Shown: positions 9,611 through 46,239 of the stretch, in pieces | Layout: the number at the start of each line of letters is the position of its first letter | How positions within the stretch are numbered: position 1 is the first letter of the stretch | DNA from: Chloroflexia bacterium | GTDB taxonomy: Bacteria; Chloroflexota; Chloroflexia; DTKN01 | Direction of reading: 5' to 3' | Length of the DNA: 64,000 nt | Assembly: GCA_034436115.1 (NCBI GenBank) | Contig: DAOTVY010000020.1 | Location: 604-64,603, forward strand | Notes under the pieces: generated by a model | What the model saw: the letters and a program-made list of their open reading frames with translations, nothing else | What the model was told of the DNA's origin: nothing | Databases searched by the model: none | Program-made: the position numbers and the translations under genes

Positions 9611-9879
9611 AGCTACCTCCTTTTGTCCCGCAATCGATGCCCGAACAAGTCGATTCTTTCCCCGCTGCACCTCCTCTCTTCGCCCCCTGAGCGGCAAAAG
9701 GGCCACTGCCTCCCGACCCGGGACCGGGGTAGCCCACACGAAAGCCGGGGCGATCGAGCTTCGCTTGCAGGCTGCACCTCACCCGGTCGGGGGCGCAAGC
9801 AGACCCCGCTCCGCCCGGAGCCAACCGGCCCTTGGCGGAGAGGGTCATCGTTTCTCGTGAGGCCCGGTGCTGCGTCCGC

Positions 9880-11040
9880 TCATCCGCTTGTCCCGGAGGC
9901 CGCGAGCTCGGCAACTGCCTCAACCGCGGCCTCGATCTCTATACGCGTATGGAACGGCCCCAGGCTGAAGCGCACCGTGCCGGCCGGGAAGGTCCCCAGC
10001 GCCCGATGGGCGGCCGGCGCGCAATGCAGCCCGGGCCGGCACGCGATCCCGTAGCGTTCATCCAGCAGTTCCGCCACCTCCGAACACGGCCGGCCCACGA
10101 TGTTGAAGGAAACCACCGCCACCTGCTTTTCCGCCCGGCCGGTCCCATACACGACGACCCCCGGGATGCGCCCCAGGCCTTCCAACAGGAGCGCGGTCAA
10201 CGCCTCCTCGCGGGCGCGGATCTTCTCTACCCCCTCTTCCCGCAGGTAGCGGACCGCGGCCTGCAGTCCCGCCAAGCCGACGGCGTTCTGCGTCCCCGAT
10301 TCGAACCTGTCCGGAAGGAAATCCGGTTGCCTTTCCTCCTCCGAGCGGCTTCCCGTACCCCCGAACGTCAGGGGACGGAAACGGTCGAGCGGAACCCGCT
10401 CGCCAATGACCAGGCCCCCGGTGCCCGTGGGTCCCAGGAGCCCTTTGTGTCCAGCAAATGCCAGAAGATCGATCCCCAGCGCCTCTACCGCGATCGGGAT
10501 CGCTCCCGCTGTCTGAGCGGCGTCGACCAGTAGTAGCCGCCCTGCCTGCCGCACGATCTCGCCCACCTCGCCCACCGGCTGCAGGGTGCCGCAGACGTTG
10601 GACGCGTGGTTCAGGACGACCAGCACGGTCTCGGGGCGGATGGCGTCCGCAACTGCCGCTGGATCGAGTTCTCCCTGCGGGGATGCGGGCAAGACCGTGA
10701 GGCGTACACCGGTTGCTTCCAACGCACGCAGGGGGCGCATCACCGAGTTGTGTTGCATGGGCCCCACCACCACGTGATCTCCCGGGCGAAGCAACCCCTG
10801 CAACGCCAGGTTGAGGGCAAAGGTGGCACCAGGCGTGAGCACGACCCGCAAGGGGTCGCTTACGCCGAAGAGAGCCGCCAGCGCCTCGCGCGTCTGGTAG
10901 ACCACACGGCCGGCCTCTACAGACATCCGGTGTCCAGAACGGCCGGGGTTGGCACCGATATCTCTTAGGAAGGCGGCCATCGCTTCCAGTACCTGGGGCG
11001 GCTTGGGCCACGAAGTCGCGGCCTGATCCAGGTAGAGCAC
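9880..11040 (-). CDS. Class V aminotransferase-fold cysteine desulfurase / selenocysteine lyase (NifS/SufS/CsdA-like)
   Basis: 386 aa, aminotransferase class V features (MLYLDQAATSWPKP..., PLP Lys region ...AFAGHKGLLGPTGTGGL); first gene of the Se operon. Confidence 0.75.
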   Translation of the reverse strand: MLYLDQAATSWPKPPQVLEAMAAFLRDIGANPGRSGHRMSVEAGRVVYQTREALAALFGVSDPLRVVLTPGATFALNLALQGLLRPGDHVVVGPMQHNSVMRPLRALEATGVRLTVLPASPQGELDPAAVADAIRPETVLVVLNHASNVCGTLQPVGEVGEIVRQAGRLLLVDAAQTAGAIPIAVEALGIDLLAFAGHKGLLGPTGTGGLVIGERVPLDRFRPLTFGGTGSRSEEERQPDFLPDRFESGTQNAVGLAGLQAAVRYLREEGVEKIRAREEALTALLLEGLGRIPGVVVYGTGRAEKQVAVVSFNIVGRPCSEVAELLDERYGIACRPGLHCAPAAHRALGTFPAGTVRFSLGPFHTRIEIEAAVEAVAELAASGTSG

Positions 11041-11316
11041 CCGCTTCCTCCTTTCTCAACCATTTCACAAAAACAAGGCCGCCGGCAGGCTTCCTGCCGG
11101 CGGCCCGCTTCCGCGCATGGATGGCTCAGGGACCTGGGTCCCTCCCGGACTTGCGCACAGGAGGCCTGCACACCAAAAAGGCGGCTCCACTGGGGTGCCA
11201 CCCGGCACCCACGGGTCCGCCTCAAGTTCGCCGCTTCTCGCTATGCAGCCTGCGCATCGCGCTCTCCAACCTTGTTCGGTTTTACTTATTTTACGACCCG
11301 CAACGCGGGCTGTCAA
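11041..11316 (-). promoter_or_regulatory. Promoter (TTGACA-17-TAAAAT) plus ~230-nt structured leader ending in an intrinsic terminator directly before the csd SD. Candidate attenuator or riboswitch of unknown class for the Se operon.
   Basis: Minus strand: gtacTTGACAgcccgcgttgcgggtcgTAAAAT; then a leader containing a possible 11-codon uORF (AUG CGC AGG CUG CAU AGC GAG AAG CGG CGA ACU UGA) and the hairpin GGGUGCC-ggg-uGGCACCC; then the terminator GCCGCCGGCAGG-aagc-CUGCCGGCGGC + UUGUUUUUGUG only ~20 nt before AAGGAGG-GUG. Confidence 0.45.
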
Positions 11317-11347
11317 GTACCGCCGCGGCAGCCTCATTCCTGCACGC

Positions 11348-13072
11348 TCAGGCAGCTGCCCCAATGCCCTGGAGGAACTCTTCGGCGATCGCCTCAACCT
11401 CTGGCGCCCCGGGTTGCTGCATCGCCCTCTCCGCCAGACGCTGCGACTCGGGGATGGTCAGACGCCGAAGGAGCCCTTTGATTTCCGGGATTCGCTCCGG
11501 GGAAAGGCAGAACCCGTCGGCTCCCAGCCCCAGGAGGATCGCGGCCACCGCGGCATGGCCCGCGCTTTCCCCGCACACCTCCAACCGTTTGCCCACGCGG
11601 TGGACACCCCCGATCGCCTCCGCAACCAGCCGGAGCACCGTAGGATGAAGCGGCCGGAAGAGATGGGCGACACGGAGGTTATGGCGGTCGCAGGCGAGCA
11701 CGTACTCGGTCAGCCGGTCCATATCGAGGAAGAAGGCGTCGACCTCGTCCGCCATCGCGGCCAGGTTCAGAACCACCAGCGGAGTCTGGAGCAGAAGCCC
11801 GGTGCGGATATCTTGAGCGTGCGGCACGCCCGTCTTCTCCAGATCTTGACGCGCCCGTTTCAGCCATTCCAGCCCAGCACGCAGTTCGGCGAACGTCTCC
11901 ACCATGGGGAACACCACGAGCAACGGACGGCCCGCCGCGGCCCGCAGGATGGCCCGGAGCTGCTCCCGGAAGGCGGAAAGGTAAGCCAGAGAGAGCCGGA
12001 TCCCGCGCAATCCCAGCAGCGGATTGCGGATCTCAGGCTCCGCCGGGAAGGGAAGCGGTTCCTCCAGGCCCGCGGAAAGGGTACAGAAGCCCACCCGCCC
12101 CGGGGGAACCTGCTCCAGGAGTTCGCGATAGGCATCGACCTGCTCCTCCTCGCTCGGGGGCGTACGACGCCCACGGAAGAGGAAATCCGTGTGGGCCAGG
12201 CCGACTCCCTCGGCCCCGCGCGAGAAGGCGGCCAGCCATTCGTCGGGCCGATCCAACGCGGCACGCACATCCACTCGCCAGCCGTCGGCCGTTTGGGCGG
12301 GAAGGCTTGCGTCGTAACTGGGTTGCGCCGCACGTAGAACTTCCTGCCGCCTCTTGTAGCGAGCAAGGGTCTCGTCGTCCGGATGGACCTCCACGCTTCC
12401 CGTGCTCCCGTCAACGACCACCGTAGCCCCGTTCGGGATGGCTTCGAGGGCACTTTCGCCCAGGGCGATCACTGCCGGAAGCCCCAGGCGGCGGGCCACG
12501 GCGGCAACCGGGCTGGTCGGCACGCCTCGGGCGAGACACAACCCCAACGGCGGCTGAGCAGCCAGCTGCAGCGCCTCGGCAGGGCCCAGCATGGAGGCAA
12601 TCAGGATGGTGCCGCGGGCACCAGCGAACGGCATAGGCGAAGGCAACTGCAGCAAAGCTGCTAGCACCCGCTGCCCGACCTCCCGGAGGTCGGCGACCCG
12701 GGCTTCCAGATCTTCGTCCTGAATGGGGGTGAAGATGGAAAGATAGGCAGAGACCGCCTCCTGCCAGGCCGCTTCGGCACGCATACCGGTGCGAATGAGC
12801 GCGCGTGCGCGATCCACCAACCCCGGGTCCCCCAAGAGCAGGCTCTGTGCCTCTAGCAAGCGATCCGCCTCACGGCGCAGCACGCGATGCGCCGCGGCGT
12901 GAAGCGCCTCCACCTCTTGCCGCGCACGCTCCAGCGCGCTCTCGAGGCGCTCCAGTTCCTGCGCGATACGCCCTGGCTTTCCTGGGGGCACCGCCACTTC
13001 CGCCGGCCGATACCACAGGGCCGGCCCAATGGCGATCCCACGGGTAATCCCGGTCCCTCGTAGAACGGTCAT
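11348..13072 (-). CDS. PEP-utilising enzyme, PtsI (Enzyme I)-like paralog, apparently lacking the phospho-histidine (TSH to TSP)
   Basis: End-to-end similarity to Enzyme I (N-terminal LRGTGITRGIAIG, C-terminal AEGVGLAHTDFLFRGRRTPPSEEEQ, ...EVCGESAG...). The position aligned with the GGRTSH active site reads RGVPTSP. Start chosen at the internal M of MTVLRGTG. Confidence 0.6.
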   Translation of the reverse strand: MTVLRGTGITRGIAIGPALWYRPAEVAVPPGKPGRIAQELERLESALERARQEVEALHAAAHRVLRREADRLLEAQSLLLGDPGLVDRARALIRTGMRAEAAWQEAVSAYLSIFTPIQDEDLEARVADLREVGQRVLAALLQLPSPMPFAGARGTILIASMLGPAEALQLAAQPPLGLCLARGVPTSPVAAVARRLGLPAVIALGESALEAIPNGATVVVDGSTGSVEVHPDDETLARYKRRQEVLRAAQPSYDASLPAQTADGWRVDVRAALDRPDEWLAAFSRGAEGVGLAHTDFLFRGRRTPPSEEEQVDAYRELLEQVPPGRVGFCTLSAGLEEPLPFPAEPEIRNPLLGLRGIRLSLAYLSAFREQLRAILRAAAGRPLLVVFPMVETFAELRAGLEWLKRARQDLEKTGVPHAQDIRTGLLLQTPLVVLNLAAMADEVDAFFLDMDRLTEYVLACDRHNLRVAHLFRPLHPTVLRLVAEAIGGVHRVGKRLEVCGESAGHAAVAAILLGLGADGFCLSPERIPEIKGLLRRLTIPESQRLAERAMQQPGAPEVEAIAEEFLQGIGAAA

Positions 13073-13860
13073 CGGGACGCTCCTTCCTGCTCGGAGCGCG
13101 ACGCCTTGCACGCCGTCGCCAGGAGCATCGAACGAAGCGGCGGCACCACTTGGGCAATCGCCCAAAGTCCGAGCTTGGGAAAAGAACGGGCCAGGTGCCT
13201 TCGGGCGAGCCCCACTCCCTCCCGGGCCGCAACGTAGCGCAGCGTCACGTGATCAAATCCCGCTGTCCTCAAGAGCCAGCACACCTCCTCGGCCGTATAG
13301 AGCCGATGGTGCACCGTGTACCGACCCTCCCCCTCGAGGAGCATCCGGTGGCGAAACTCGGCTTCCGGTTCCAGACTCATCCAGCCGAGCAGCCGCGCGG
13401 CCAGCATCAGCCGGATACGCAGCGATCGCGCGTTCGGCGTACTGAGCACCAGAAGCCCTCCGGGAGCGAGCACCCGGTGGATTTCCCTTAGCGCAGGAAG
13501 GGGCGAGCCAGGCAGATGCTCCAGGACCTCCGAGAAAACGGCTGCGTCGAAGGTGTTGTCTTGGAAGGGGAGCGGATCGAACTCCAGGTTGCAGCGCCGC
13601 ACCTCTACTTCCAAGGCCTGCCAGAGGTCCGCGCGGTGCTCTGGGTCGAGGTCGATTCCATCGACGCGATAGCCGGCACGCACCAGCAGCTCCGTGAACT
13701 GCCCCGGGTTGCAGCCGATCTCCAGCACCCGGCTTCCCGTCGGCACCTGGAGCGCCTCCAGCAAGGCAACGTAACGGGTACGATGAAGGGCAAAATACTC
13801 CGGTTTGCGTTCTTGGGGAAGGAAGCGGCCGTAATCCTCCACCAGCCGGCGAGCATTCAT
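13069..13860 (-). CDS. Class I SAM-dependent methyltransferase
   Basis: Motif I VLEIGCNPGQFTELL; start taken at the internal M (MNARRLVEDY). Confidence 0.65.
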   Translation of the reverse strand: MNARRLVEDYGRFLPQERKPEYFALHRTRYVALLEALQVPTGSRVLEIGCNPGQFTELLVRAGYRVDGIDLDPEHRADLWQALEVEVRRCNLEFDPLPFQDNTFDAAVFSEVLEHLPGSPLPALREIHRVLAPGGLLVLSTPNARSLRIRLMLAARLLGWMSLEPEAEFRHRMLLEGEGRYTVHHRLYTAEEVCWLLRTAGFDHVTLRYVAAREGVGLARRHLARSFPKLGLWAIAQVVPPLRSMLLATACKASRSEQEGASR

Positions 13861-36414: not shown

Positions 36415-38097
36415 TTACCCTGAAAGAGGCTCGGCCAGCGCTTCTTCGGCCGCCCGGAGTACCTCTCCCCGGTGCACCAGTTCGGTCAATACCTCGATAT
36501 CCGGCTGGAGGAATCGATCCCGTTCCAGGAAAGGCACGTGGGAGCGAATCAGCCGGTACACGGCAGCGGTCCCCCGGCCCAGGGCGGGCGGCCCCTGCTC
36601 CGGGCCCAACAGGTCCACCGCCTGGGCAGCGCACAGGAGCTCGATGGCAACCACGTACTCTACGTTCCGAACCACCCGGCGGGCGTGCAGGGCCGCGTTG
36701 GCGCTCATGCTGACATGGTCCTCCTGATCCTCGCAGGTCGGGATGGAATCGACGCTATCCGGGTGGGCCAGGGTCTTGTTCTCGGACACAAGGGCTGCCG
36801 CAATGTACTGAGGGATCATCAATCCCGTGTTCAGCCCGCTTTCCCGGACCAGCATCGGAGGAAGCCCATCGCTCAGCTGCCGCGTGAGGAGCCGGAAGAT
36901 GCGTCGCTCGGCGATGCTGCCTACCTCGGCGATCGCAATCGCCAAAATATCCGCAGCCAGGGCAACCGGCTCCCCGTGGAAGTTGCCGCCCGAAAGGGCC
37001 TTGTTCTCCCGCTCCAGCTCGGGGAAGAGGAGCGGGTTGTCCGTCACCGCGTTCAGCTCCCGCTCCAACACCTGGCTCACGAACTTCAGGACGTCGGCTA
37101 CCGCGCCCAGCACCTGCGGGGCACAACGGAGGGAATAGGCGTCCTGCACCCGGAGAGCCGAGCCAACCAGGCGGCTTCCCTCGAGCAGCCGCCGCACCCG
37201 CGCGGCACAAGCTACCTGCCCAGGCTGGTTGCGCAGATGGTGGATTCGGTCGTCGTAGGCATCGGCCGCCGCCCGCAACGCCTCCAGAGAAAGGGCCAGC
37301 GCGATCTCGGACTGGAGCAGCAGCTGCTGCGCGTCGCAGAGCGCCAGCGCGGCGATCGCGGTGGAAACCGCGGTGCCGTTGTTCAATGCCAGACCTTCCT
37401 TGGCCCCCAAGACCACGCGCGAGAGGCCGGCCCGTCGCATGGCTTCCGCGCCGCTCACGCGCTCGCCGCGGTAGATGGCTTCACCGCTAGGTTCCTCCGA
37501 ACCCTCCGGATCCCGCGCGAGCACCAGCACCAGGTGCGAAAGGGGCGCCAGGTCCCCGCTCGCGCCCAGCGAACCCATCGCCGGAATCACCGGGTGCACT
37601 CCCCGGTTCAGCATCTCGAGAAGCGTCTCCAACGTTTCCAGCCGGATCCCGGAGTATCCCCGGGCCAGGGTGTTGGCACGGATGAGCATCGCCGCCCGCA
37701 CCACTTCCTCCGGCAGCGGATCGCCGACCCCACAGGCGTGGCTCACGATCAGGTTGTAGGACAGGCGATCGGCATGGTCCGCCGGGACCGACACGTTGGC
37801 CAGAGAGCCAAACCCGGTGTTCAGCCCGTACACCAACGGTTCCCCACGGCCGGCCACTTCGTCTACCCAGGCGCGACAGCGCCGGACTGCCCGCCGTGCC
37901 CCCTCCGCGAGGGCCACCGGGCGGCCGAAACGCGAGACCGCAACCAAGTCCTCCAACGTCAGGTGCTCGCCGTCGAGCAGAAGCGGGGCTTCGGAACGCT
38001 CCAGAGCCAAATTCGTACCTCCTCGTAGCGGATCGGCCCGCAGGAAAAGGCCTGGAACTATTCTACTATACCTGACGGGTGGCCGCAAACCGGGCAC
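36415..38097 (-). CDS. hutH: Histidine/aromatic amino acid ammonia-lyase (MIO-dependent)
   Basis: MIO-forming ASG triad in GSLGASGDLAPLSHL, and GLNTGFGSLANV; 560 aa. The histidine/phenylalanine/tyrosine specificity is not resolved. Confidence 0.75.
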   Translation of the reverse strand: MPGLRPPVRYSRIVPGLFLRADPLRGGTNLALERSEAPLLLDGEHLTLEDLVAVSRFGRPVALAEGARRAVRRCRAWVDEVAGRGEPLVYGLNTGFGSLANVSVPADHADRLSYNLIVSHACGVGDPLPEEVVRAAMLIRANTLARGYSGIRLETLETLLEMLNRGVHPVIPAMGSLGASGDLAPLSHLVLVLARDPEGSEEPSGEAIYRGERVSGAEAMRRAGLSRVVLGAKEGLALNNGTAVSTAIAALALCDAQQLLLQSEIALALSLEALRAAADAYDDRIHHLRNQPGQVACAARVRRLLEGSRLVGSALRVQDAYSLRCAPQVLGAVADVLKFVSQVLERELNAVTDNPLLFPELERENKALSGGNFHGEPVALAADILAIAIAEVGSIAERRIFRLLTRQLSDGLPPMLVRESGLNTGLMIPQYIAAALVSENKTLAHPDSVDSIPTCEDQEDHVSMSANAALHARRVVRNVEYVVAIELLCAAQAVDLLGPEQGPPALGRGTAAVYRLIRSHVPFLERDRFLQPDIEVLTELVHRGEVLRAAEEALAEPLSG

Positions 38098-38208: not shown

Positions 38209-38619
38209 ATGGCGCGAACCTTCCGTTTGCTGGCCGTTCTCGGGCTGCTCTTCCTGCCCCTGGCCTGCGGCTCCGCACCAACCCTATCCTACACCGTCGG
38301 GCCGTGCCAGGAAAGCGCCTGGTCGCCGAGCATGCAGAACCGTGTGGAGGTCTTCGCACGCGGTTCGGACCTCTACCTTGAGCAGGACGTGGCCTATGTG
38401 TGTTGCGCCCGAATCGCGCTGCGCCTGGAATCTGAGGGCAACTTGCTGAAGGTCATCGAGACCAACGAGGGAGAGGTCTGCCGCTGTATGTGCGCCTACC
38501 ATGTGAGCGCTCGGGTGAGCGGCCTTGCCCGGGGAAGATACCGGGTGCAGGTATGGGGCATCCAGTACCAAGACATCCACCCGCTCGAACTGTTGGGAGA
38601 AGAGACCGTCGATCTCTAG
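38209..38619 (+). CDS. Small Cys-rich secreted lipoprotein, function unknown
   Basis: Signal peptide plus lipobox LPLACGS; 8 Cys in 136 aa. Confidence 0.5.
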   Translation: MARTFRLLAVLGLLFLPLACGSAPTLSYTVGPCQESAWSPSMQNRVEVFARGSDLYLEQDVAYVCCARIALRLESEGNLLKVIETNEGEVCRCMCAYHVSARVSGLARGRYRVQVWGIQYQDIHPLELLGEETVDL

Positions 38620-38689: not shown

Positions 38690-39778
38690 ATGGCCAGACG
38701 TGTCGCCTTCCCGCCGTTGGGCGTCCTGAGCCTGGTGGCAGAAAAGTATCTCCAGGTCCTCGGGACAGAAGTGGTTTCCACTCCCCCGGTGTCCCGGCGC
38801 ACCCTGGACATCGGAATCCAGCACACGCCCGAGATGCTCTGCATCCCGTGCAAGCTTCTGTTCGGGAGCTACCTCGAGGCTGCGGAACGCGGTGCGACCG
38901 AGCTGGTGATGCTCGGGGGTGCCGGCACCTGCCGCCTGGGCTACTCGGCGCTTCAACACGCCCGACAGCTGCGGGCACTTGGGTTCGACGTCCGGGTCCA
39001 CACCCTGGACCTCTACCACGTGCACCGGGATCTGCTCCGACTGACGCGTGCCTTCAGCGGGGGCCGGCCACTGCGCGAGCTGTTGACGCCTATCCGGTTC
39101 CTGTTGGGCCTGCTGGAACTGACCGACGCCATCGAAACGGAGACCCTCCGGCTGCGGCCCCGGGAATGTGTGCCCGGGGCGACGGATGCTGCCCGTGTCA
39201 GGGCGCTTGAGCAAGTCGCCCGGTTGCAGAACTACAGGGAATTGAAGGCGGAACAGGATGCGATCCTCGATCTCCTGCGCCGGGTAGAACACGAACCGGA
39301 CCGACCGGTGCTCCGGATCGGGCTGGTTGGAGATGTCTATACGATCCTCACCCCGTTCCTCAACCACAACCTGGAGCGGGAACTCGCCCGAATGAACGTA
39401 GAGGTGCGGCGGTGGTTCCACTATACCGGGCGTATCGTCCCGCCGCTGCCCGCCTGGTTGCGGCGAGACCGGAGAGCGCGGGCGCGGCTGGCCGGGAAGC
39501 GCTACCTGAAGCGGGATGTCGGCGGGTTCGCCCGTTCGGCGGTGGGGGAAGCAGCCCTTATGGCGCAAGAAGGGGAAGTCGACGGCTTGATCCACGTGGC
39601 GCCCTTCAACTGTACCCCGGAGCTGGTGGCCCAGAGCGCGCTGGTGGCGCTCCATCGCGACCGTGGCATGCCGGTGCTGAACCTGCTGTTCGACGAGCAG
39701 ACAGGCCGGGCAGGTGTATTGACCCGCCTGGAGGCGTTTGTGGACATGCTCTGGACAGCGCGTAGGGCGAGGGGGTGA
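38690..39778 (+). CDS. DUF2229-like protein (acyl-CoA dehydratase activase-associated family), paralog A
   Basis: 362 aa; shares conserved blocks with the downstream paralog (LDxGIQxTPExLCxPCKLLFG; GLVGDVYTILTPFLNHNLERELARMNVEV; GLIHVAPFNCTPE...RLEAFVDML). Confidence 0.55.
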   Translation: MARRVAFPPLGVLSLVAEKYLQVLGTEVVSTPPVSRRTLDIGIQHTPEMLCIPCKLLFGSYLEAAERGATELVMLGGAGTCRLGYSALQHARQLRALGFDVRVHTLDLYHVHRDLLRLTRAFSGGRPLRELLTPIRFLLGLLELTDAIETETLRLRPRECVPGATDAARVRALEQVARLQNYRELKAEQDAILDLLRRVEHEPDRPVLRIGLVGDVYTILTPFLNHNLERELARMNVEVRRWFHYTGRIVPPLPAWLRRDRRARARLAGKRYLKRDVGGFARSAVGEAALMAQEGEVDGLIHVAPFNCTPELVAQSALVALHRDRGMPVLNLLFDEQTGRAGVLTRLEAFVDMLWTARRARG

Positions 39779-39781
39779 ACC

Positions 39782-40735
39782 ATGCGCGTGGGTGTTCCTC
39801 GAGCGCTGGCCTTCTTCCGCTTCCACCCCGGGTGGGACGGCTTCCTGCGCTCCCTGGGGATCGAGGTGGTGGTCTCGCCGCCCAGCAACCGCTCTATCCT
39901 GGAAGCCGGGTTGCCCTACACGGTCCCGGAGGCCTGCCTCCCCCTCAAGCTCTTCTTCGGCCATGTGCGGGCACTGGTGGGAAAGGTGGACGCGCTCCTT
40001 GTCCCTTCCATCCAGCGCTTTGCCGCGGGTTCCACGAACTGCGCCAAACTGATCGGATTGCCGGACCTGCTGCAAGCCACGATGGAGGACTTGCCGCCGC
40101 TGATCGCCCCGGACATCGACCTGAGCGCGGGCTCTGCTGGCCTGTGGAAAGCGGCGTTCGAGGTGGGGAAGGTGTTGGGCCGCAATCCCATCCAGCTCCG
40201 CGAAGCGGCCCAGGCCGGGTGGGCCGCCTATCTGCGTGCCCGCGCGGCGATGCTCGAGGGCAGCCTGACCCCTGCGGCCTTTGACCAGCCCATCCGTGCG
40301 CCCTCGCCTCCCCCGGGCGGTCCTACCGTGGCTGTCGTAGGACACCCATACAACCTCTACGATCCCTTTGTCAACCACAACCTGCTGGCCCGTTTGACGC
40401 GACTGGGCGTGGATGTGCTGACCCCCGAACGGCTGGGCCCCTGGCCATCGGCCGAGTATTGGACCTTCGAGTACGAACTGGTCGGGGCCACCCGGTTGGC
40501 GATGGAGCGGGAACAGGTGGAAGGACTGATCGCCGTCGCTGCTTTCGGCTGCGGGCCCGACGGGGTGATCCTGGAGGAAGTGCGTTCCCTGGCGGGGCAG
40601 GCTGGCCTTCCGGCGATGGTGCTCACGGTCGACGAGCATAGCGGCGAGGCTGGCTGGGTCACGCGCGTCGAGGCCTTTGTGGATATGCTCCTTTGGCGCC
40701 GGCGAGGCGAGCATGTCCGGGCATCGGAGGGATGA
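39782..40735 (+). CDS. DUF2229-like protein, paralog B
   Basis: AVVGHPYNLYDPFVNHNLLARLTRLGVDVL; LIAVAAFGCGPDGV...RVEAFVDMLL; start 4 nt after the upstream stop. Confidence 0.55.
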   Translation: MRVGVPRALAFFRFHPGWDGFLRSLGIEVVVSPPSNRSILEAGLPYTVPEACLPLKLFFGHVRALVGKVDALLVPSIQRFAAGSTNCAKLIGLPDLLQATMEDLPPLIAPDIDLSAGSAGLWKAAFEVGKVLGRNPIQLREAAQAGWAAYLRARAAMLEGSLTPAAFDQPIRAPSPPPGGPTVAVVGHPYNLYDPFVNHNLLARLTRLGVDVLTPERLGPWPSAEYWTFEYELVGATRLAMEREQVEGLIAVAAFGCGPDGVILEEVRSLAGQAGLPAMVLTVDEHSGEAGWVTRVEAFVDMLLWRRRGEHVRASEG

Positions 40736-40738
40736 AGC

Positions 40739-41695
40739 GTGGGCAAAAAGATCTACCTGGGCATCGACGTAGGCTCGGTAACGACCAAGATCGTCGCTAT
40801 GGACGAGGCAGGAACTCTGGTGAGCTCGCTCTACCGGCGGACGGCCGGCCGCCCGATCGAGACCATCCAGGAGGGATTGCGTTGGCTGCAGGGGCACCTT
40901 CCGCCCCAGGTGGAAGTGGCCGGTGTGGGGACGACCGGAAGCGGCCGCCAGTTGTGCGGCGTGATCGTCGGCGCCGACGTCGTGAAGAACGAGATCACCG
41001 CCCATGCGGTGGCCGCCTTGCACTGTGTTCCCAACGTTCGCACGGTCATCGACATCGGGGGACAGGACTCCAAACTGATCGTGCTCGAGAACGGGGTCGT
41101 GGTCGATTTCGCGATGAACTCGGTCTGTGCCGCCGGCACCGGCTCCTTCCTGGAGCAACAGGCGAACCGGCTGGGCATCACGCTGCAGGAGCTTGGGCAG
41201 CGGGCCTTGCGCTCGCACCACCCGGTGCGGATCGCCGGGCGCTGCACGGTCTTTGCGGAATCGGACATGATCCACAAGCAGCAGATGGGCTTCCCTCTAG
41301 ATGACATCCTCTATGGGTTGTGCCAGGCCCTGGTGCGCAACTACCTGAACAACCTGGCCCTTGGCAAGACACTCCACCCACCGGTCGTGTTCCAGGGAGG
41401 AGTGGCTGCGAATGTCGGGGTGGTCCGCGCCTTTCAGGAAGCGCTGGGAACCGAGGTGATCGTACCCCAACACCACGAGGTCATGGGTGCAATCGGGGCC
41501 GCCCTGCTGGCACGGGAGTGGGTGGACGGCCGGCCTACCCGCTTTCGCGGGTTCGACGCAGCCTGGAGCGACTATCGCGCCTCTTCCTTCGAATGCCGTG
41601 CCTGCCCGAACCGTTGTGAGATCGTACAGATCCAGATGGGCGGGGAGATCGTTGCCCGCTGGGGCGGCCGCTGCGAGCGGTGGGACGTGAGCTGA
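40739..41695 (+). CDS. BadF/BadG/BcrA/BcrD (HgdC-like) ATPase, a CoA-substrate-specific enzyme activase homolog
   Basis: N-terminal YLGIDVGSVTTKIVAMDE (actin-fold ATPase), FAMNSVCAAGTGSFLE, C-terminal Cys motifs CRACPNRC. Confidence 0.7.
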   Translation: MGKKIYLGIDVGSVTTKIVAMDEAGTLVSSLYRRTAGRPIETIQEGLRWLQGHLPPQVEVAGVGTTGSGRQLCGVIVGADVVKNEITAHAVAALHCVPNVRTVIDIGGQDSKLIVLENGVVVDFAMNSVCAAGTGSFLEQQANRLGITLQELGQRALRSHHPVRIAGRCTVFAESDMIHKQQMGFPLDDILYGLCQALVRNYLNNLALGKTLHPPVVFQGGVAANVGVVRAFQEALGTEVIVPQHHEVMGAIGAALLAREWVDGRPTRFRGFDAAWSDYRASSFECRACPNRCEIVQIQMGGEIVARWGGRCERWDVS

Positions 41696-41721: not shown

Positions 41722-42528
41722 CTATTGCGCCCCGTCCGCAGAAAGGTCGCCGGAGGCGCGGCAAAGCCGCTGGCCCGCGCGCATGGCGAGGGGATCTCCT
41801 GGGCAGGGCGCGGCAGCGAACGCGCATCCCCCCAACAACGGGCAGCCCTCGCAGCGCGGCACCCGCTTGCGGCAGCGTTCTTTCCCGTGCCGCACGATGA
41901 GGGCATGGTACTCGTTGAACATAGCCGCATCGGGCGGGAGGTGCGCCATAAAGAGGGCGCGGAGCGCCTGGTAACTCGCCTTTTCTTGTGCAAGCCCAAG
42001 CCGCGCCAAGAGCCGCGCGGTATAGCCATCGACGACGAAAGTCGGCTGTCCTGCCCCGTACAGCAGGATGCTATCTGCCGTCTCCGGACCGATGCCAGGC
42101 ACCGCAAGCAGTTCGTTGCGCAACGTTTTCAGATCGCCAATCGCAAGCCTTTGCGGGTCCCCTGCGTGCACGCGAAACAGGTAGTCGAGGAAAGCGCGCA
42201 AGCGAACCGCCTTCACCCGGTAGGTCCCCGCCGGACGGAGGCGCTCTGTCAGTTCTTCCACCGGAAGTGTGTACAGCGCCCCCGGGGAAAGAAGCCCTTC
42301 GGTTTTCAGCCGCTCGAGCGCGCGCTCCACGTTGCGCCAGGAGGTGTTCTGGGCCAGGATGGCACCGACCATCACCTCGAACGGGGTCTCCCCGGGCCAC
42401 CAGCCCTGAGGGCCGTAGGCGTCCAACAGCTGCCGGTAGATCTCCAGAAGGCGTTCCCCGACTTCCACCGCCTCACCTCCGGCGCCGCACCCAGAACCAA
42501 AGCGCCAGGAGCAGAAGGAGCATCCCAC
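41722..42528 (-). CDS. Endonuclease III-like HhH-GPD DNA glycosylase-family protein with C-terminal Cys cluster
   Basis: LAVPGIGPETADSILLY (HhH-GPD motif) and C-terminal CEGCPLLGGCAFAAAPC. Confidence 0.6.
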   Translation of the reverse strand: MGCSFCSWRFGSGCGAGGEAVEVGERLLEIYRQLLDAYGPQGWWPGETPFEVMVGAILAQNTSWRNVERALERLKTEGLLSPGALYTLPVEELTERLRPAGTYRVKAVRLRAFLDYLFRVHAGDPQRLAIGDLKTLRNELLAVPGIGPETADSILLYGAGQPTFVVDGYTARLLARLGLAQEKASYQALRALFMAHLPPDAAMFNEYHALIVRHGKERCRKRVPRCEGCPLLGGCAFAAAPCPGDPLAMRAGQRLCRASGDLSADGAQ

Positions 42529-43267
42529 CGAATGCCCAGGCCTCGGGTGAAACCCTTAAAGATCCGCTGGCCTCGGTCGTGCTTGGAGGAGGGAAGGGAT
42601 AGGCAGCCGTTGCCGATGCCGATGCAGAGGGCAGAGGCGAAGGAGTCGCTGTCGCGGGGAGGATCGTACGGGCCGGCACCGGGCTCGCCAGGGCAGGCGT
42701 AATCGAAGGCAAGGGACTAGGGGCAGACGAGGGGGTGGGAGTGGGGGAAGGAGACGGCGCGGTTGTGGCGGGAACGTCCGCCCCGGCCCGCGCCAGGATC
42801 TCCTCCCAACCGCCGATGGCAGGAGGCGTCCGTCCATCTCCCCAAACCCAGCCGTCGATATCCCCATCCCGCAGCCACCGGTCGCCCGCCCCGACCGGCG
42901 AATAAAGCCAGCGGCCGTCGCTCCACTGGAAGTAGCTCCAGTAATGGCAGGGTGTCCCCCGACAGGCGCAGAAGCATTCCTGGGGCGTCGGAGGACACCC
43001 TACCCCTTCGATCGCGCACAGCGCCGTGCCCGTGCCAAAGCCTGGAAGCAGGGCCACCTCAAGCCCGGAGCGCTCCAGGAGATCGACCCCACGGATCGAC
43101 TCTTCGGCGAATTCGACCAGACGCACGAGCACCCGGCCATCCCCGAAGTCGACCACCAGCGCCGCCCGATGGGGCGCCTGAGCACGCAGCGGCCCCGGAA
43201 ACGCGAGTCCTGCCAGGCCCAGGAACAGGAGCACGATCGTCCACCGGATGCGCTTCTGTAGGGCCAC
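42473..43267 (-). CDS. Secreted, C-terminally membrane-anchored protein with ~150-aa globular domain and a Pro/Ser/Thr-rich linker; proposed corrinoid-binding partner (transcobalamin beta-domain/DUF4430-like?)
   Basis: Signal peptide MALQKRIRWTIVLLFLGLAGLA; PSPSPTPTPSSAPSPLP linker; C-terminal hydrophobic anchor followed by RRRR; lies in the riboswitch-controlled operon. Confidence 0.45.
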   Translation of the reverse strand: MALQKRIRWTIVLLFLGLAGLAFPGPLRAQAPHRAALVVDFGDGRVLVRLVEFAEESIRGVDLLERSGLEVALLPGFGTGTALCAIEGVGCPPTPQECFCACRGTPCHYWSYFQWSDGRWLYSPVGAGDRWLRDGDIDGWVWGDGRTPPAIGGWEEILARAGADVPATTAPSPSPTPTPSSAPSPLPSITPALASPVPARTILPATATPSPLPSASASATAAYPFPPPSTTEASGSLRVSPEAWAFGGMLLLLLALWFWVRRRR

Positions 43268-43281
43268 CGATCCCCCCGCGG

Positions 43282-43824
43282 CTAGTACTCGATCCCCGCC
43301 CGCGCAGGCACTCCGGCGGCATAGGGGTGCCGGATCTCCCGCATCTCGGTCACCAGGTCGGCCCGTTCGAGCAATTCCTGCGGCGCGCGCCGGCCGGTAA
43401 GGATCAACTCGACCCCCTGCGGCCGCTCATCCAATAGCGCCAGGACCTCTTCCAGCGAGAGCAGCCCGAAGTAGACGGCCACACAGACCTCGTCCAGCAC
43501 CACGATGTCATACTGCCCGCTGTGGAGAGCCTCCCGCGCCCGTGCCAGGCCGTCGTGGGCACAGCGGATGTCTTCGGGGGTGGCGCGCTCGACGTGGACG
43601 AAGGAAGGCCGCCCGTACTGTTCGATCGTCAAATACGGTGCGAGCCGCCGCGCCGCCTCCAACTCCCCGTAGGGGAGGCCCTTCATGAACTGGCCGATGT
43701 AGGTGTACAGGCCGTGGCCGGCCGCGCGCAACGCCAACCCCAGGGCGGCGGTCGTCTTGCCCTTACCGTCCCCGGTGTACACCTGCACAAGCCCACGACG
43801 CTTCGTCTCCTTGCTTTCGGACAC
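43282..43824 (-). CDS. cobO: Cob(I)yrinic acid a,c-diamide / cob(I)alamin adenosyltransferase (CobO/BtuR type)
   Basis: GLVQVYTGDGKGKTTAALGLALRAAGHG P-loop and DEV...YGLL blocks typical of CobA/CobO. Confidence 0.8.
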   Translation of the reverse strand: MSESKETKRRGLVQVYTGDGKGKTTAALGLALRAAGHGLYTYIGQFMKGLPYGELEAARRLAPYLTIEQYGRPSFVHVERATPEDIRCAHDGLARAREALHSGQYDIVVLDEVCVAVYFGLLSLEEVLALLDERPQGVELILTGRRAPQELLERADLVTEMREIRHPYAAGVPARAGIEY

Positions 43825-43848
43825 GGGACCCTCCAGTGCCGGGCCGGG

Positions 43849-44931
43849 TCAATGGCGCGTGCGGGCGTACCAACGCAAGGCCAGACCTAGCAAGACGGCT
43901 ACACCGCCCCCGACCCATGCGGGCATCGCCGATCCTCGTTCGGGCAAGCCGGTCTTGGGAAGGAGTGCCGGCGCCGAAACGACCGTGCGGGCGAGCGGGA
44001 ACGGTCGCAACATGAGCGCGACAATCGCCTGATAGGTAGCCAGCGCGTTTTCACCCGGGACGGCCGCTTGCCACTGCAGGGCCCCGCTGGGCAATTGCAG
44101 GCTCAGGAGCGCGCTCAGCGGCGTCTTCCCCTGCCGGGTCCAGGCCGGCCCTTCGGGGTCCTCCCCGGCCGCGACCAGCGCCTGGACGACGTAGGCGGTG
44201 GAGTTGGCGTCGGTGTCCGTACCCCACGGGCTGGGCTTCTGATAGGGGAAGCCTCCGTCGTCGTTCTGCTGCGTATGGAGATAGGCGAGGGCGCGCTGGA
44301 TGGAGGCGTCCCCCGACGGCACGCCGGCCTCCACGAGCGCCTGGATGGCCAGCGCGGTGGAATTCGTGTCCGCGCTGCCAGGCGAAGCGTCCCCGCTCCA
44401 GGACCAGCCTCCCTCCGGGGTCTGCGCCTGGCGAAGCCAGACGATCGCCGCTTCGGGAATCGGCCGTCCTACGGACGCCAGCGCCAGCAGTGCGAAGGCG
44501 TGGCCGGCCAGATCGCTTCCGTAACGCCCGGTTGCCGGATCATAGGCCTGTTCCAGGGCAGCGATCAGATCTACTCCGCCAAACGCCCGTGGGTCCTTGC
44601 CGGCGCAGACCGCTGCCAGGATGGTCTTGCCCGCGCTGCCCGCGTTTTTGGCCATCTCGGACGCGTGTGCGCCGAGGAAGGAGATCGGGGACTGTCCATC
44701 CCGAAGGAATCCGTTCGGGTCGCCGCCTACAGCGCAAATCGCAAAGACGGCATCCGCCGTGGATCCGGCCCCGAATCCGGGGAAACTTCCGTCCGGGAGT
44801 TGCTGGGTTGCCACCCAGGCCAGGGCGCCCAGCGCCGCATCTCGGTAGGGGCCGGCCGCCCCTGCGATGCCCGCCGGGGCGATCGCGGCCACCAGGAGCA
44901 CCGCAACAAGGAGAACACGATGGGTGCGCAT
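43849..44931 (-). CDS. Secreted prenyltransferase/squalene-oxidase-repeat (alpha-alpha toroid) protein with C-terminal TM anchor; first gene downstream of the cobalamin riboswitch
   Basis: Signal peptide MRTHRVLLVAVLLVAAIAPAGIAG; repeated QxxDGG[WF] motifs (TQQLPDGSFPG, RQAQTPEGGWSW, HTQQNDDGGFPY); C-terminal hydrophobic helix. Start at the ATG 8 nt after AGGAGG (the ORF track over-extends to 45015). Confidence 0.65.
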   Translation of the reverse strand: MRTHRVLLVAVLLVAAIAPAGIAGAAGPYRDAALGALAWVATQQLPDGSFPGFGAGSTADAVFAICAVGGDPNGFLRDGQSPISFLGAHASEMAKNAGSAGKTILAAVCAGKDPRAFGGVDLIAALEQAYDPATGRYGSDLAGHAFALLALASVGRPIPEAAIVWLRQAQTPEGGWSWSGDASPGSADTNSTALAIQALVEAGVPSGDASIQRALAYLHTQQNDDGGFPYQKPSPWGTDTDANSTAYVVQALVAAGEDPEGPAWTRQGKTPLSALLSLQLPSGALQWQAAVPGENALATYQAIVALMLRPFPLARTVVSAPALLPKTGLPERGSAMPAWVGGGVAVLLGLALRWYARTRH

Positions 44932-44947
44932 GCGGGATCCTCCTGTT

Positions 44948-45165
44948 TGCGAAACAAAATAACCCCCTCCTTTCGGAGGGGGAAGGACAGCCAACCAGTT
45001 CTTCTGCTCTCTCACCCCCTTTCCGCGAAGGTGGAGAAGAGATCGGGCGAAGGTGGGCGACCTGGCTTGGACGGTAGCCTTACGGCCCCGCCCTTACAGT
45101 TGCGGGACAGCACCGGACTCGCACCGGTTTCCCCCTGGGTAGCCCTAGCATCCGGGCATCGGGCG
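44948..45165 (-). ncRNA. Cobalamin (AdoCbl) riboswitch with intrinsic-terminator expression platform
   Basis: Minus strand: ...CCCAGGGGGAAACCGGUGCGAGUCCGGUGCUGUCCCGCAACUGUAAGGGCGGGG...CCAAGCCAGGUCGCC.... Compared from memory with the E. coli btuB aptamer core (GGGAAUCCAGUGCGAAUCUGG...CGCAGCGGUAAGG / CAAGCCCGAAGACCUGCC), it carries the B12-box-like GCAACUGUAAGGG. It is followed by the terminator CCCCCUCCGAAAGGAGGGGG + UUAUUUUGUUU right before the SD. Confidence 0.8.
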
Positions 45166-45253
45166 CCTTCGCCGGCCTACTTGCCAAGGTGCCAAGCATT
45201 GCAGAGGTTACTTTAGCACAAGAGCGGCCCTCTGTCAAACGGCAGCCACGGAT

Positions 45254-45282
45254 TTGACAAAGGGCCCTACCTCTGTTATCAT
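45254..45282 (+). promoter_or_regulatory. Promoter of the rplU-rpmA-rpmE cluster (TTGACA-17-TATCAT)
   Basis: TTGACA 45254-45259; TATCAT 45277-45282. Confidence 0.5.
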
Positions 45283-45325
45283 AACGGCTTGCGAAAAGAA
45301 CTCAACGGAATACGAGGAGTGGGCG

Positions 45326-45637
45326 GTGTTCGCGATTGTTCGAACGGGGGGAAAGCAATATCGGGTCGAACCCGGGCAGACGATCCTGGTGGAACGGATG
45401 CCTTTTGAGGCCGGACAGCAGATCGAGCTCGACCAGGTGCTGCTGGTCTCCGGCGCTGAAGGGGTAAGGACCGGTTCTCCGGTGGTTCCCGGAGCACGGG
45501 TGCGCGCGACCGTTCTGGCCCACGAACGCGGGCCCAAGATCGTGGTCTTTAAGTACAAGCCCAAGAAGCGGTACCGGGTCCGCTCCGGGCACCGACAGGA
45601 ATTGACCCGCTTGCTCATCGACACCATCGAGGCCTAG
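45326..45637 (+). CDS. rplU: 50S ribosomal protein L21
   Basis: GTG start after GAGGAG; (V)[17 protein letters not shown] is the typical L21 N-terminus; the ORF track over-extends to 45254. Confidence 0.85.
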
Positions 45638-45655
45638 CAGGCGAGGAGGGAAACG

Positions 45656-45913
45656 ATGGCCCATAAGAAAGGCGTAGGCAGCACGCGGAACGGTCGGGAC
45701 AGCCACTCCAAACGGCTGGGCGTAAAGCGCTTCGGCGGACAGTGGGTGCGCGCCGGCACGATTCTCGTCCGCCAGCGGGGAACCAAAATCAAGCCCGGCA
45801 ACAACGTCGGTCTGGGGCGCGATTATACCATTTACGCGCTGATCGATGGCTATGTGCGCTTTGAGCCGCACTCGCGCCAGCAAAAGCGCGTCAGCGTCTA
45901 CCCGACTGCCTGA
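45656..45913 (+). CDS. rpmA: 50S ribosomal protein L27
   Basis: [29 protein letters not shown] is the canonical L27 N-terminus. Confidence 0.9.
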
Positions 45914-45924
45914 GGAGGGTTCCT

Positions 45925-46239
45925 TTGAAACCAGGGATTCACCCGGAATATGTAGAAGCAACCGTCATCTGCGCCTGTGGCAACACCTGGAAGACGCGTT
46001 CCACACGCCCGGTGCTCAAGACGGACATTTGCTCCAAGTGCCATCCTTTCTATACCGGTGAACAGCGCATCGTCGATACGGCCGGACAGGTGGAACGCTT
46101 CATGCAGCGCGTCGAGACCAGCCAGCGCTTGCAGCAGGTTTCCGACGAGCGCCGCCGGGCAAAGGAGGAACGGCGCCGGGCACGGCAGATCATCGAACTT
46201 CCAGACGAGCAGCGCTCGCCTGCGGAGGAGGCCGACTAG
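45925..46239 (+). CDS. rpmE: 50S ribosomal protein L31 (Zn-ribbon type) with basic C-terminal extension
   Basis: MKPGIHPEY..., four Cys (CACG...[10 protein letters not shown]); about 30 extra Arg/Glu-rich C-terminal residues. Confidence 0.85.

Follow-up and report, generated by a model that had tools for sequence, protein, structure and literature searches.

Burroughs, Balaji, Iyer and Aravind predicted in 2007 that bacterial transcobalamin-like SLBB proteins scavenge B12; a β-hairpin following the helix is the defining trait of this SLBB clade, and SLBB-toroid fusions in both orders occur in other bacteria (PMC1796856). In Lactobacillus sakei, secreted transcobalamin α-like and β-like proteins are separately encoded at lsa1836-1840 together with an ECF transporter (bioRxiv 10.1101/864751). 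ECF-CbrT of Lactobacillus delbrueckii (PDB 6FNP) is a proven importer of cobalamin and cobinamide, and hemin does not inhibit it (PMC5997447). The concept is thus not new, being predicted by Burroughs et al. and, as a split pair with an ECF transporter, known from L. sakei. Here we describe a riboswitch-controlled operon on the minus strand of a 64-kb stretch of Chloroflexota DNA, referred to as the window, and we consider it likely that this is a cobalamin-repressed corrinoid-salvage operon with a split transcobalamin-like surface binder.

The operon leader contains a cobalamin riboswitch aptamer at 45035-45185 (minus strand). It matched RF00174 over the full length of the model (positions 1-189) with 59.7 bits (E 2.9e-12) against the gathering score of 31.5, and was the sole Rfam match in the whole 64 kb. 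The score against the family riboswitch model R1 was 130.9 bits. The sequence-only reading of this DNA had already named a cobalamin riboswitch, quoting the leader strings GGGAAACCGGUGCGAGUCCGGUGCUGUCCCGCAACUGUAAGGG and CAAGCCAGGUCGCC, and both strings were found in the sequence. On the other hand, the B12 box, following the Vitreschak/Franklund consensus, is the AAGCCAGGUCGCC segment, and the GCAACUG that this reading had called a B12-box variant belongs to a different motif, the GCCACUG core, of which it is a variant. A promoter-like, sigma-70-like TTGACA-17 nt-TAAAGT site, assigned by consensus match only, was located at 45210-45238 (minus), about 25 nt 5' of the aptamer; it agrees with the consensus at 10 of 12 positions and is TG extended, and three promoter-like sites were observed in the region against 0.4 expected. 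The riboswitch operon proposed earlier is therefore real, but its limit at 45165 was too short, as the aptamer reaches 45185 and the putative promoter 45238. At 44953-44982 (minus), 53 nt 3' of the aptamer, lies a strong intrinsic terminator, CCCCCTCC-GAAA-GGAGGGGG followed by TTATTTTGTT, with an 8-bp stem including 7 G-C pairs, a GAAA loop and a U-rich tail. The hairpin was also obtained in the MFE and centroid folds of the leader, and the MFE of the leader was no better than those of shuffled sequences (z -0.22). This terminator is the predicted expression platform, a transcriptional OFF switch. As read directly from the sequence, the Shine-Dalgarno AGGAGG is at 44939-44944 (minus), 7 nt 5' of the ATG at 44931, so that terminator, ribosome site and start codon all follow the riboswitch as described before.

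The first gene (43849-44931, minus) encodes a 360-aa secreted, SCO2321-like (α/α)6-toroid protein with PF13243/PF00432 toroid repeats. It begins with MRTHRVLLVAVLLVAAIAPAGIAGAAG, and has an N-terminal signal peptide and four QxxxDG[GS][FW]-type repeats. The toroid and the signal peptide had been recognized from the outset, but the C-terminal segment, then described as a transmembrane anchor, is more than that, namely a sortase signal, in which LPKTG (residues 324-328, nt 43948-43962) is followed by the hydrophobic AWVGGGVAVLLGLAL and the basic RWYARTRH. Motif, hydrophobic stretch, basic tail and signal peptide together make up the LPXTG sortase-substrate pattern, and an LPXTG-type C-terminal arrangement was present in 106 of 120 homologues. 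In the toroid family alignment (A2), P325 is invariant and T327 almost invariant. The LPXTG model TIGR01167 gave no score for this protein at E<=0.1, and the score of 118.5 against NCBIfam SCO2321_fam (NF053823) fell far short of the curated cut-off of 300. The fold match of the toroid to transcobalamin was non-specific, as terpene cyclases outscored transcobalamin. The product of gene 1 could be conceived as an extracellular enzyme (a terpenoid cyclase, a prenyltransferase or a glycan-active toroid), with gene 3 encoding a wall-polysaccharide-binding SLBB protein and the B12 link being regulatory only, which we regard as highly improbable. We predict instead that gene 1 encodes the α half of a split transcobalamin-like binder.

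Gene 2 (43282-43824, minus), placed between the toroid gene and the SLBB gene, encodes a 180-aa ATP:cob(I)alamin (corrinoid) adenosyltransferase of the CobO/CobA type. It matched PF02572 with 217 bits (E 2.5e-64) over 171 of 172 positions, and exceeded the equivalog cut-offs of NCBIfam models TIGR00708 (185 against 167.75) and NF004637 (198 against 185), in full agreement with the earlier identification as CobO. Corrinoid import is not proven by the presence of a B12 riboswitch and CobO alone, since both are also associated with de novo synthesis and with cobalt uptake. The operon had been presented as one of three genes. Genes 1 to 3 are as described, but a fourth gene, encoding a 248-aa HhH-GPD DNA glycosylase (JGI call; 41722-42468, minus), begins 4 nt past the stop of gene 3 and is probably co-transcribed with them. 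The adjacency of SLBB and HhH-GPD genes was found at loci L002-L006, and gene 4 is most likely a passenger, with a synteny confined to close Chloroflexia relatives.

Gene 3 (42473-43267, minus) encodes a 264-aa SCO2322-type transcobalamin-β-like SLBB/β-grasp protein, composed of a signal peptide, the SLBB domain, a linker, a C-terminal transmembrane helix and an RRRR tail, without LPXTG. The linker and the anchor correspond to the first description, but the folded domain, given there as about 150 aa, comprises about 120 aa (residues ~31-150, nt 42818-43177) and carries a six-Cys insert. Across 91 aa past the WVWG motif, the linker is about 52% Pro, Ser or Thr. The structure model (pLDDT 92.3) has a β-hairpin (E71-77/E80-86) after the helix, as in the transcobalamin-like SLBB clade, and this predicted combination of a β-grasp (SLBB) fold with a post-helix hairpin insert is that of a transcobalamin β domain. 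Homologues of gene 3 amounted to 2176 representatives at E<=1e-3. The protein had no match in the Pfam copy searched, which apparently lacks PF28005, as even homologues with a precomputed PF28005 assignment had no score in it; precomputed PF28005 assignments are found on homologues 63-65% identical to gene 3, and absent from gene 3 itself. Its score against NCBIfam SCO2322_fam (NF040672) was 19.5, far short of the curated cut-off of 85. In Pfam, neither surface protein matched PF01122 or DUF4430 (PF14478) at E<=0.1, and transcobalamin, intrinsic factor and haptocorrin were all absent from the results of PDB profile searches with either family (A1, A2, A3). It is therefore only by fold that the two proteins are linked to transcobalamin. 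Earlier proposed as its possible analogues, they are more likely homologues.

The locus was compared with 80 related Chloroflexota loci, of which 73 have the toroid gene immediately 5' of its SLBB partner. A cobalamin riboswitch preceded the cluster in 64 loci, at a distance of 103-610 nt, and in a 65th locus it was internal, before the second of two toroid-SLBB pairs. The nine weakest plus-strand cluster-upstream R1 matches all reached Rfam gathering scores. Ten of the 16 loci without a cluster-upstream riboswitch are on truncated contigs, and only SLBB-only loci lacked the riboswitch despite adequate upstream sequence. Thus, the linkage of orthologues to the riboswitch, suggested for checking by the sequence-only reading, was observed at essentially every locus with both toroid and SLBB genes and adequate upstream sequence. 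In five loci (L003-5, L050, L053) the SLBB gene has neither an adjacent toroid gene nor a riboswitch, and the pair is therefore not obligatory. The toroid:SLBB stoichiometry is not fixed either, as in some loci the toroid gene is present in two or three paralogous copies, or the SLBB gene in two. These two observations, together with the non-specific fold match of the toroid, would suit an arrangement in which the SLBB protein alone binds or shuttles the corrinoid, while the toroid serves as a wall-associated store or a scaffold or has another ligand, and no α/β sandwich is formed. This is unlikely in view of the direct adjacency in most loci, of the natural SLBB-toroid fusions, which were found in P0087 and in a five-locus cluster in addition to those in other bacteria (PMC1796856), and of one toroid homologue that passes the PF01122 cut. 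Adenosyltransferase genes of the CobO or PduO type were present in 16 of the 80 loci. In the actinobacterial locus L082, a 337-aa protein, SCO2322, T, AA' and S are encoded in matching order.

An ECF module consisting of CbiQ, a PF12822 S component and a fused ATPase follows the cluster in 57 of the 80 loci, and the complete arrangement, the toroid-SLBB pair and then ECF T, AA' and S, was found in 47-57. When the proteins of the relatives were used as tblastn queries, no ECF T or S gene was detected in the 64-kb window, and the matches were generic ABC ATPases of 32-34% identity only. The original remark that the operon contains no ECF transporter is thus correct for the window, but not for most relatives. 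At the related ECF loci L005, L084 and L088, riboswitch, EcfT, AA' and S form a separate operon. The absence of an ECF transporter from the window operon is not characteristic of the system but a rearrangement specific to the lineage. The profile of the S component had a sole match in the PDB, 6FNP_A (E 7.3e-6), which is ECF-CbrT. In another reading, the pair would supply B12 synthesis with cobalt or a different metal, and the riboswitch would regulate this supply as for cbiMNQO. Against it, the S component belongs to the PF12822 type and is akin to CbrT, which is specific for cobalamin, and not to CbiM/CbiN. Moreover, neither the region of the window nor the set of conserved cluster genes contained other cob/cbi genes, the folds match domains that sandwich corrinoids, and just two cysteines are invariant or nearly so in the SLBB family alignment, the actinobacterial members shown having two only, which fits a disulfide. 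Metal capture is very unlikely on these grounds. The uptake of haem or another tetrapyrrole has been proposed for the homologous lsa1836-1840 of L. sakei, which encode a split α/β pair with an ECF transporter and for which docking and mutant data are reported to favour haem (bioRxiv 10.1101/864751). For the loci analysed here we find this hardly credible, because the cobalamin riboswitch accompanies the pair at essentially every locus with adequate upstream sequence, corrinoid adenosyltransferase genes are inside the operons, and the S component is similar to that of CbrT, a transporter not inhibited by hemin.

The split transcobalamin-like reading is supported by fold and genomic context. Neither of the two outcomes that the sequence-only reading had named as refuting it was obtained, the leader being recognized by Rfam as a cobalamin riboswitch and the orthologues being linked to such riboswitches as given above. 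Further support comes from the conserved neighbourhood of the toroid and SLBB genes, from their naturally occurring fusions, and from genes for CbrT-like ECF importers and adenosyltransferases in the same operons. We propose that transcription begins near 45205 (minus). With ample cobalamin, ligand binding by the RF00174 aptamer would let the terminator (44982-44953) form and end transcription, while scarcity would allow read-through and expression of the operon genes. The adenosylated coenzyme is the usual ligand of cobalamin riboswitches, and may be the form sensed here. The toroid protein would be joined to the cell wall by sortase via LPKTG, and the SLBB domain would be tethered by the C-terminal membrane helix on a leash of ~90 residues, about half of them Pro, Ser or Thr. 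At the cell surface, the toroid (α) and SLBB (β) halves would sandwich a corrinoid from outside (cobalamin or cobinamide) between them and hand it to an importer of the ECF type whose S component is CbrT-like. Most relatives encode this importer within the operon itself, and the three related ECF loci in a separate riboswitch-controlled operon. Once inside the cell and reduced, the corrinoid would be converted by CobO into the adenosylated coenzyme, closing the feedback loop. More tentatively, Chloroflexota, and probably Actinobacteria with SCO2321/SCO2322, might use a two-piece transcobalamin with a peptidoglycan-linked toroid and a leashed β domain, the leash carrying the corrinoid to the CbrT-like S component. 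If true, an ECF transporter would for the first time be seen to depend on extracytoplasmic substrate-binding proteins, and two further phyla would offer experimentally tractable bacterial kin of the B12 carriers of animals.

The (α/α)6 toroid and the β-grasp SLBB domain with the clade-specific hairpin are shared with mammalian transcobalamin, intrinsic factor and haptocorrin. As in transcobalamin, both parts are located outside the cytoplasm, where they are predicted to capture corrinoids with high affinity and pass them to an uptake system. However, mammalian transcobalamin joins a PF01122 α and a DUF4430-type β domain in one polypeptide, whereas the window has separate genes with CobO between them, differently anchored halves (LPXTG versus a transmembrane helix on a long linker) and an extra Cys-rich loop of ~20 residues in the β domain; delivery is proposed to be to an ECF transporter instead of an endocytosis receptor. 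Lsa1839/Lsa1840 and Lsa1836-1838 (EcfS, EcfAA', EcfT) of L. sakei follow the operon logic of most Chloroflexota relatives, but are assigned to haem uptake, and the cited portion of that report gives neither a riboswitch nor an adenosyltransferase (bioRxiv 10.1101/864751), while the window operon has both a cobalamin riboswitch and CobO without ECF genes. The SLBB proteins of Burroughs et al. (PDB 3U7Z) are alike in signal peptide, surface anchoring and toroid fusion or pairing, and their operons contain CbiO/CbiQ-type ECF genes; that study is centred on Firmicutes and does not mention riboswitch control (PMC1796856), whereas the window represents a Chloroflexota lineage and its SCO2322-type domain escapes the DUF4430 HMM of the Pfam copy searched. 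ECF-CbrT (6FNP), a distant homologue of the S component of the relatives with fitting cobalamin and cobinamide substrates, operates without an extracytoplasmic binding protein (PMC5997447), and the window itself has no ECF gene. The best family-specific matches of genes 1 and 3 are the adjacent-gene families SCO2321_fam and SCO2322_fam (Pfam PF28005), whose names, as seen, have no function attached, and a literature search on these families returned nothing relevant; in the window this pair is split by CobO and lacks ECF genes. BtuG/BtuH of Bacteroides and BtuF of E. coli also capture corrinoids extracytoplasmically with high affinity for a B12 importer under B12-riboswitch control. They (BtuG is mentioned in PMC12713380) are functional analogues with unrelated folds, a β-propeller and a class III periplasmic binding protein, and belong to diderm systems using TonB-dependent BtuB and BtuCD. 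Among the split systems, the window locus is a variant in that CobO is part of the operon and the ECF module is not; in L005, L084 and L088 this module stands apart, preceded by a riboswitch of its own.

The whole 64-kb window was scanned with Rfam at the gathering threshold, and the cobalamin riboswitch RF00174 was the sole match. Its match spans the full model at 45035-45185 (minus strand), scoring 59.7 bits (E 2.9e-12; gathering score 31.5), which bears out the sequence-only reading of this leader as a cobalamin riboswitch, and the leader strings quoted there are present in the sequence. The aptamer reaches 45185, past position 45165 at which the feature had been ended, and the B12 box, previously read as GCAACUG, corresponds to AAGCCAGGUCGCC by the published consensus. 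A sigma-70-like site, TTGACA-17-TAAAGT, lies upstream of the aptamer (45238-45210, minus). Between the aptamer and the AGGAGG (44939-44944, minus) preceding the ATG of gene 1 (44931, minus) is a G+C-rich stem of 8 bp, CCCCCTCC-GAAA-GGAGGGGG, followed by a U-rich tail (44982-44953, minus); this hairpin is also present in the MFE and centroid folds of the leader. Judged from the sequence, a leader with this layout would act as a transcriptional OFF switch. When the whole leader was folded, the MFE structure contained no clear antiterminator and was no more stable than those of shuffled sequences (z -0.22), and therefore the terminator is the sole basis of the platform mechanism proposed here. 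A second, strong promoter-like site (TTGACA-17-TATCAT, 11/12; 45254-45282, plus) points away from the riboswitch promoter and has an intergenic region of about 70 bp in common with it; genes for the ribosomal proteins L21, L27 and L31 are located downstream of this site (region 45254-46239).

The ORFs of the window agreed with independent JGI gene calls on a sibling contig. Gene 1 (43849-44931, minus) encodes a 360-aa protein whose N-terminus resembles a signal peptide and which contains prenyltransferase/squalene-cyclase repeats (PF13243, E 3.3e-9). Among family-specific models it matched the NCBIfam 'SCO2321 family membrane protein' best, with a score far under the cut-off. The C-terminal transmembrane anchor proposed previously is more than a transmembrane helix: LPKTG (nt 43948-43962) precedes a hydrophobic stretch and RWYARTRH follows it, forming a sortase sorting signal. 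In the family alignment P325 is invariant and T327 nearly so, an LPXTG-like motif occupies this position in 106 of 120 homologues, and several homologues are annotated at source as LPXTG-anchored. AlphaFold2 modelling on the family alignment gave a confident structure (pLDDT 93.1), whose fold matches included intrinsic factor (20.8), haptocorrin (19.8) and transcobalamin (19.2). Because these matches sit among many other toroids, the modelled fold is compatible with a transcobalamin alpha domain and not diagnostic of it. One homologue of 49% identity was barely above the Pfam threshold of the eukaryotic Cobalamin_bind family. An enzymatic toroid of the terpene cyclase type was rejected, since the protein lacks a DxDD motif and consists of one exported domain anchored to the wall. 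In some Chloroflexales clusters, a tandem double toroid of about 780 aa with an extra C-terminal region replaces the single one (L073 5398-7731 and nine other loci, e.g. L066, L071, L074, L075 and L079); in other loci, consecutive paralogues occur, either two or three of the toroid or two of the SLBB gene.

Gene 3 (42473-43267, minus) encodes 264 aa, consisting of a signal peptide, a domain of about 120 residues with six cysteines, a linker and a hydrophobic helix. The linker is rich in Pro/Ser/Thr (about 52% across the 91 residues after the WVWG motif) and the helix ends in RRRR without LPXTG (linker and anchor, window 42473-42817). The same anchor type, a transmembrane helix plus basic tail without LPXTG, was found in 81 of 93 homologues, with a median linker of about 110 aa. 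Gene 3 had no match in the local Pfam copy; its homologues carry PF28005 'SCO2322', a recent Pfam entry. Residues 1-165 were modelled confidently with AlphaFold2 on the family alignment (pLDDT 92.3). In a Foldseek search with the domain, the top 18 matches were all transcobalamin, haptocorrin, intrinsic factor or 3u7z, with probabilities of 0.97-1.00, and beyond them the probabilities fell below 0.5. For this domain, the comparison with transcobalamin and intrinsic factor, suggested at the outset as a check, came out in favor of the reading. In the model, the helix is also followed at once by a beta-hairpin, the feature by which Burroughs et al. (2007, PMC1796856) define the transcobalamin-like SLBB clade. 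A Cys-rich loop of about 20 residues is inserted after this hairpin; its cysteines at 84, 91, 98, 100, 102 and 107, including a CxCxC, lie in residues 84-107 (window 42947-43018). C84 is invariant and C98 nearly invariant across the family, and the actinobacterial relatives shown retain just two cysteines. In an exported protein, these cysteines are most simply explained as disulfides, the alternative being a metal site. A phmmer search with the domain against 1.84 billion representatives found 2,176 relatives at E<=1e-3, where each of these roughly 2,200 is a cluster representative at 50% identity.

At the sequence level, neither protein matched DUF4430 or PF01122 in Pfam at E<=0.1. Sequence-profile searches of the PDB with the full gene 3 alignment, the toroid alignment and the trimmed SLBB-domain alignment identified no solved cobalamin binder for either family: the first output was swamped by Pro/Thr linkers, the second consisted of squalene cyclase repeats, and the domain-only search gave only chance CtBP matches (E about 0.6). 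A literature search on SCO2321/2/3 returned nothing relevant, and no published test of corrinoid binding by any bacterial member was found, including in the DUF4430 papers.

The second gene (43282-43824, minus) had been named CobO, and it scored above the NCBI equivalog cut-offs for that enzyme. Gene 4, an HhH-GPD glycosylase (41722-42468, minus), starts 4 nt past gene 3 and is probably co-transcribed with the operon. Since the SLBB-HhH-GPD adjacency is confined to close Chloroflexia relatives (L002-L006), we treat gene 4 as a passenger. Convergent with the operon is a three-gene cluster (38690-41695, plus) of DUF2229/HGD-D-like proteins and a BcrAD/BadFG-type ATPase, an activator-like module of 2-hydroxyacyl-CoA dehydratases. 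The same part of the window contains a histidine/aromatic ammonia-lyase gene (36415-38097, minus) and a 136-aa ORF (38209-38619, plus) with a lipoprotein-like signal (LFLPLACGS), several cysteines and no Pfam match in the JGI annotation.

A genome scan with the trimmed SLBB-domain alignment yielded 80 loci, all from Chloroflexota. A covariance model built from the window aptamer and ten Rfam-verified aptamers of relatives was run on all loci; the nine lowest-scoring plus-strand matches upstream of clusters were re-tested in Rfam, and all nine reached a cobalamin-clan gathering score. Downstream ORFs were clustered at 70% mutual coverage, avoiding merging via low-complexity linkers. In 73/80 loci, the SLBB gene is immediately preceded by a toroid gene in the same orientation. 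The first cluster gene has a cobalamin riboswitch 103-610 nt ahead of it in 64 loci, and in one more the switch precedes the second of two pairs. The 15 remaining loci are ten with less than 410 nt of upstream sequence and five with SLBB only; therefore, every toroid+SLBB locus with adequate upstream sequence has the switch, the linkage that had been proposed for checking in orthologues. The SLBB-only loci (L003, L004, L005, L050 and L053) have no adjacent toroid gene and no upstream riboswitch, and L003-L005 retain the SLBB-HhH-GPD adjacency of the window. The existence of such loci would fit an SLBB protein that binds the corrinoid alone, which is unlikely in view of the near-universal toroid-SLBB adjacency and the natural SLBB+toroid fusions (P0087 and a five-locus cluster).

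ECF importer genes follow on the same strand in 57 of the 80 loci, and 47 have the complete set of a CbiQ-family T, a PF12822 S component and a fused double ATPase (AA'). Ten loci carry CobO and six a PduO-type adenosyltransferase. The S-component profile had a single significant match in the PDB, 6FNP chain A (E 7.3e-6); from its length of 182 residues, we infer that this chain is CbrT. The substrates of the transporter in 6FNP, ECF-CbrT, are cobalamin and cobinamide, and hemin has no inhibitory effect on transport (PMC5997447). Haem uptake, as put forward for L. sakei (bioRxiv 10.1101/864751), is extremely unlikely for this family given the cobalamin riboswitch, the adenosyltransferase genes and the CbrT relationship of the S component; these argue that the substrate here is a corrinoid, not haem. 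Capture of cobalt by the pair is highly unlikely as well: B12 riboswitches and CobO also fit biosynthesis, and 3u7z carries the label 'metal binding' from its deposition, but the cluster is not accompanied by cob/cbi genes, and the S component resembles CbrT and not CbiM/N. Outside Chloroflexota, the genes are ordered alike in L082, an actinobacterial locus (SCO2321-like, SCO2322, T, AA', S). No riboswitch reached the Rfam gathering score in L082; a sub-threshold cobalamin-riboswitch core just upstream of the SCO2321-like gene (7718-7875; Rfam 22.8 versus 31.5, family model 32.2 bits) was left out of the riboswitch counts. A divergent aptamer may likewise place the actinobacterial systems under B12 control. 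Among neighboring RNA features, a molybdenum-cofactor riboswitch (RF01055, 73.8 bits) is found at L016 103-222, about 5.7 kb before the B12 cluster of that locus, and a tRNA-Sec gene (L011 6-101) adjoins the L011 cluster.

No EcfT or S homologue was found in a search of the window, in agreement with the earlier statement that the operon contains no ECF transporter. The toroid-CobO-SLBB arrangement without ECF genes also occurs in the closest genome relatives (L002, L006 and L007), and L009, L011 and L016 have the order toroid-CobO-SLBB-T-AA'-S. L005, whose SLBB domain is 71% identical to that of the window, encodes riboswitch-EcfT-EcfAA'-S as a stand-alone operon (9443-13259, minus). Such operons are also present at L084 1447-5104 and L088 4042-7711, metagenome contigs with the S components closest to that of L005. 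These stand-alone operons probably show where the importer of the window organism is encoded. Most simply, an ancestral operon would have been divided in this lineage into two units of one B12 regulon, with capture and adenosylation in the window and import elsewhere. A third combination of the same modules, riboswitch-CobO-EcfT-AA'-S without toroid or SLBB genes, was seen at L093 43-4290, on contig Ga0123519_10036054 from the same JGI sample as the sibling contig of the window. The GC contents of the two ECF contigs from this sample, L093 (0.60) and L157 (0.64), compared with 0.655 for the window, and the sequence identities suggest that they belong to other Chloroflexota.

We propose that low cobalamin would lead to read-through of the terminator. 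The toroid would be exported and sortase-linked to the wall, and the SLBB domain would be exported and tethered by its membrane helix via the long flexible linker. The two would close around a corrinoid like the alpha and beta domains of transcobalamin and hand it to a CbrT-like ECF importer; CobO would adenosylate it, and the product would feed back on the riboswitch. Because the anchoring consistently differs, with LPXTG in the toroids and a transmembrane leash in the SLBB proteins, it suggests, speculatively, a wall-to-membrane relay of the ligand.

ECF transporters are the textbook case of ABC import that needs no soluble or surface binding protein, and the competition of monoderm bacteria for scarce corrinoids is poorly understood. 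The window locus and its roughly 80 relatives provide unusually clean comparative evidence for the pair as a standard front end; on this basis, we predict that a transcobalamin-like alpha/beta pair is the front end of CbrT-like B12 importers in Chloroflexota. This gives a predicted function to families with uninformative database names (SCO2321/SCO2322 and PF28005). The results also speak for an origin of animal B12 carriers from bacterial surface proteins, as proposed in 2007.

The interpretation as a split transcobalamin-like system holds, while its novelty had been overestimated. Burroughs et al. 2007 (PMC1796856) defined the transcobalamin-like SLBB clade, predicted B12 scavenging, and described signal peptides, Gram-positive anchors, toroid fusions in both orders and operons with CbiO/CbiQ. 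In L. sakei (bioRxiv 10.1101/864751), alpha-like and beta-like secreted proteins are encoded separately, together with an ECF transporter. The concept is thus already published, and the window locus is a particular version of it. The pair in the window is of the Chloroflexota SCO2321/SCO2322 type and escapes the DUF4430 and PF01122 HMMs. Particular to this locus are the Cys-rich insert in the beta domain, the LPXTG versus transmembrane-leash anchoring of the two halves, the CobO gene embedded between them, the probable separation from the importer, and the very tight riboswitch linkage across the family.
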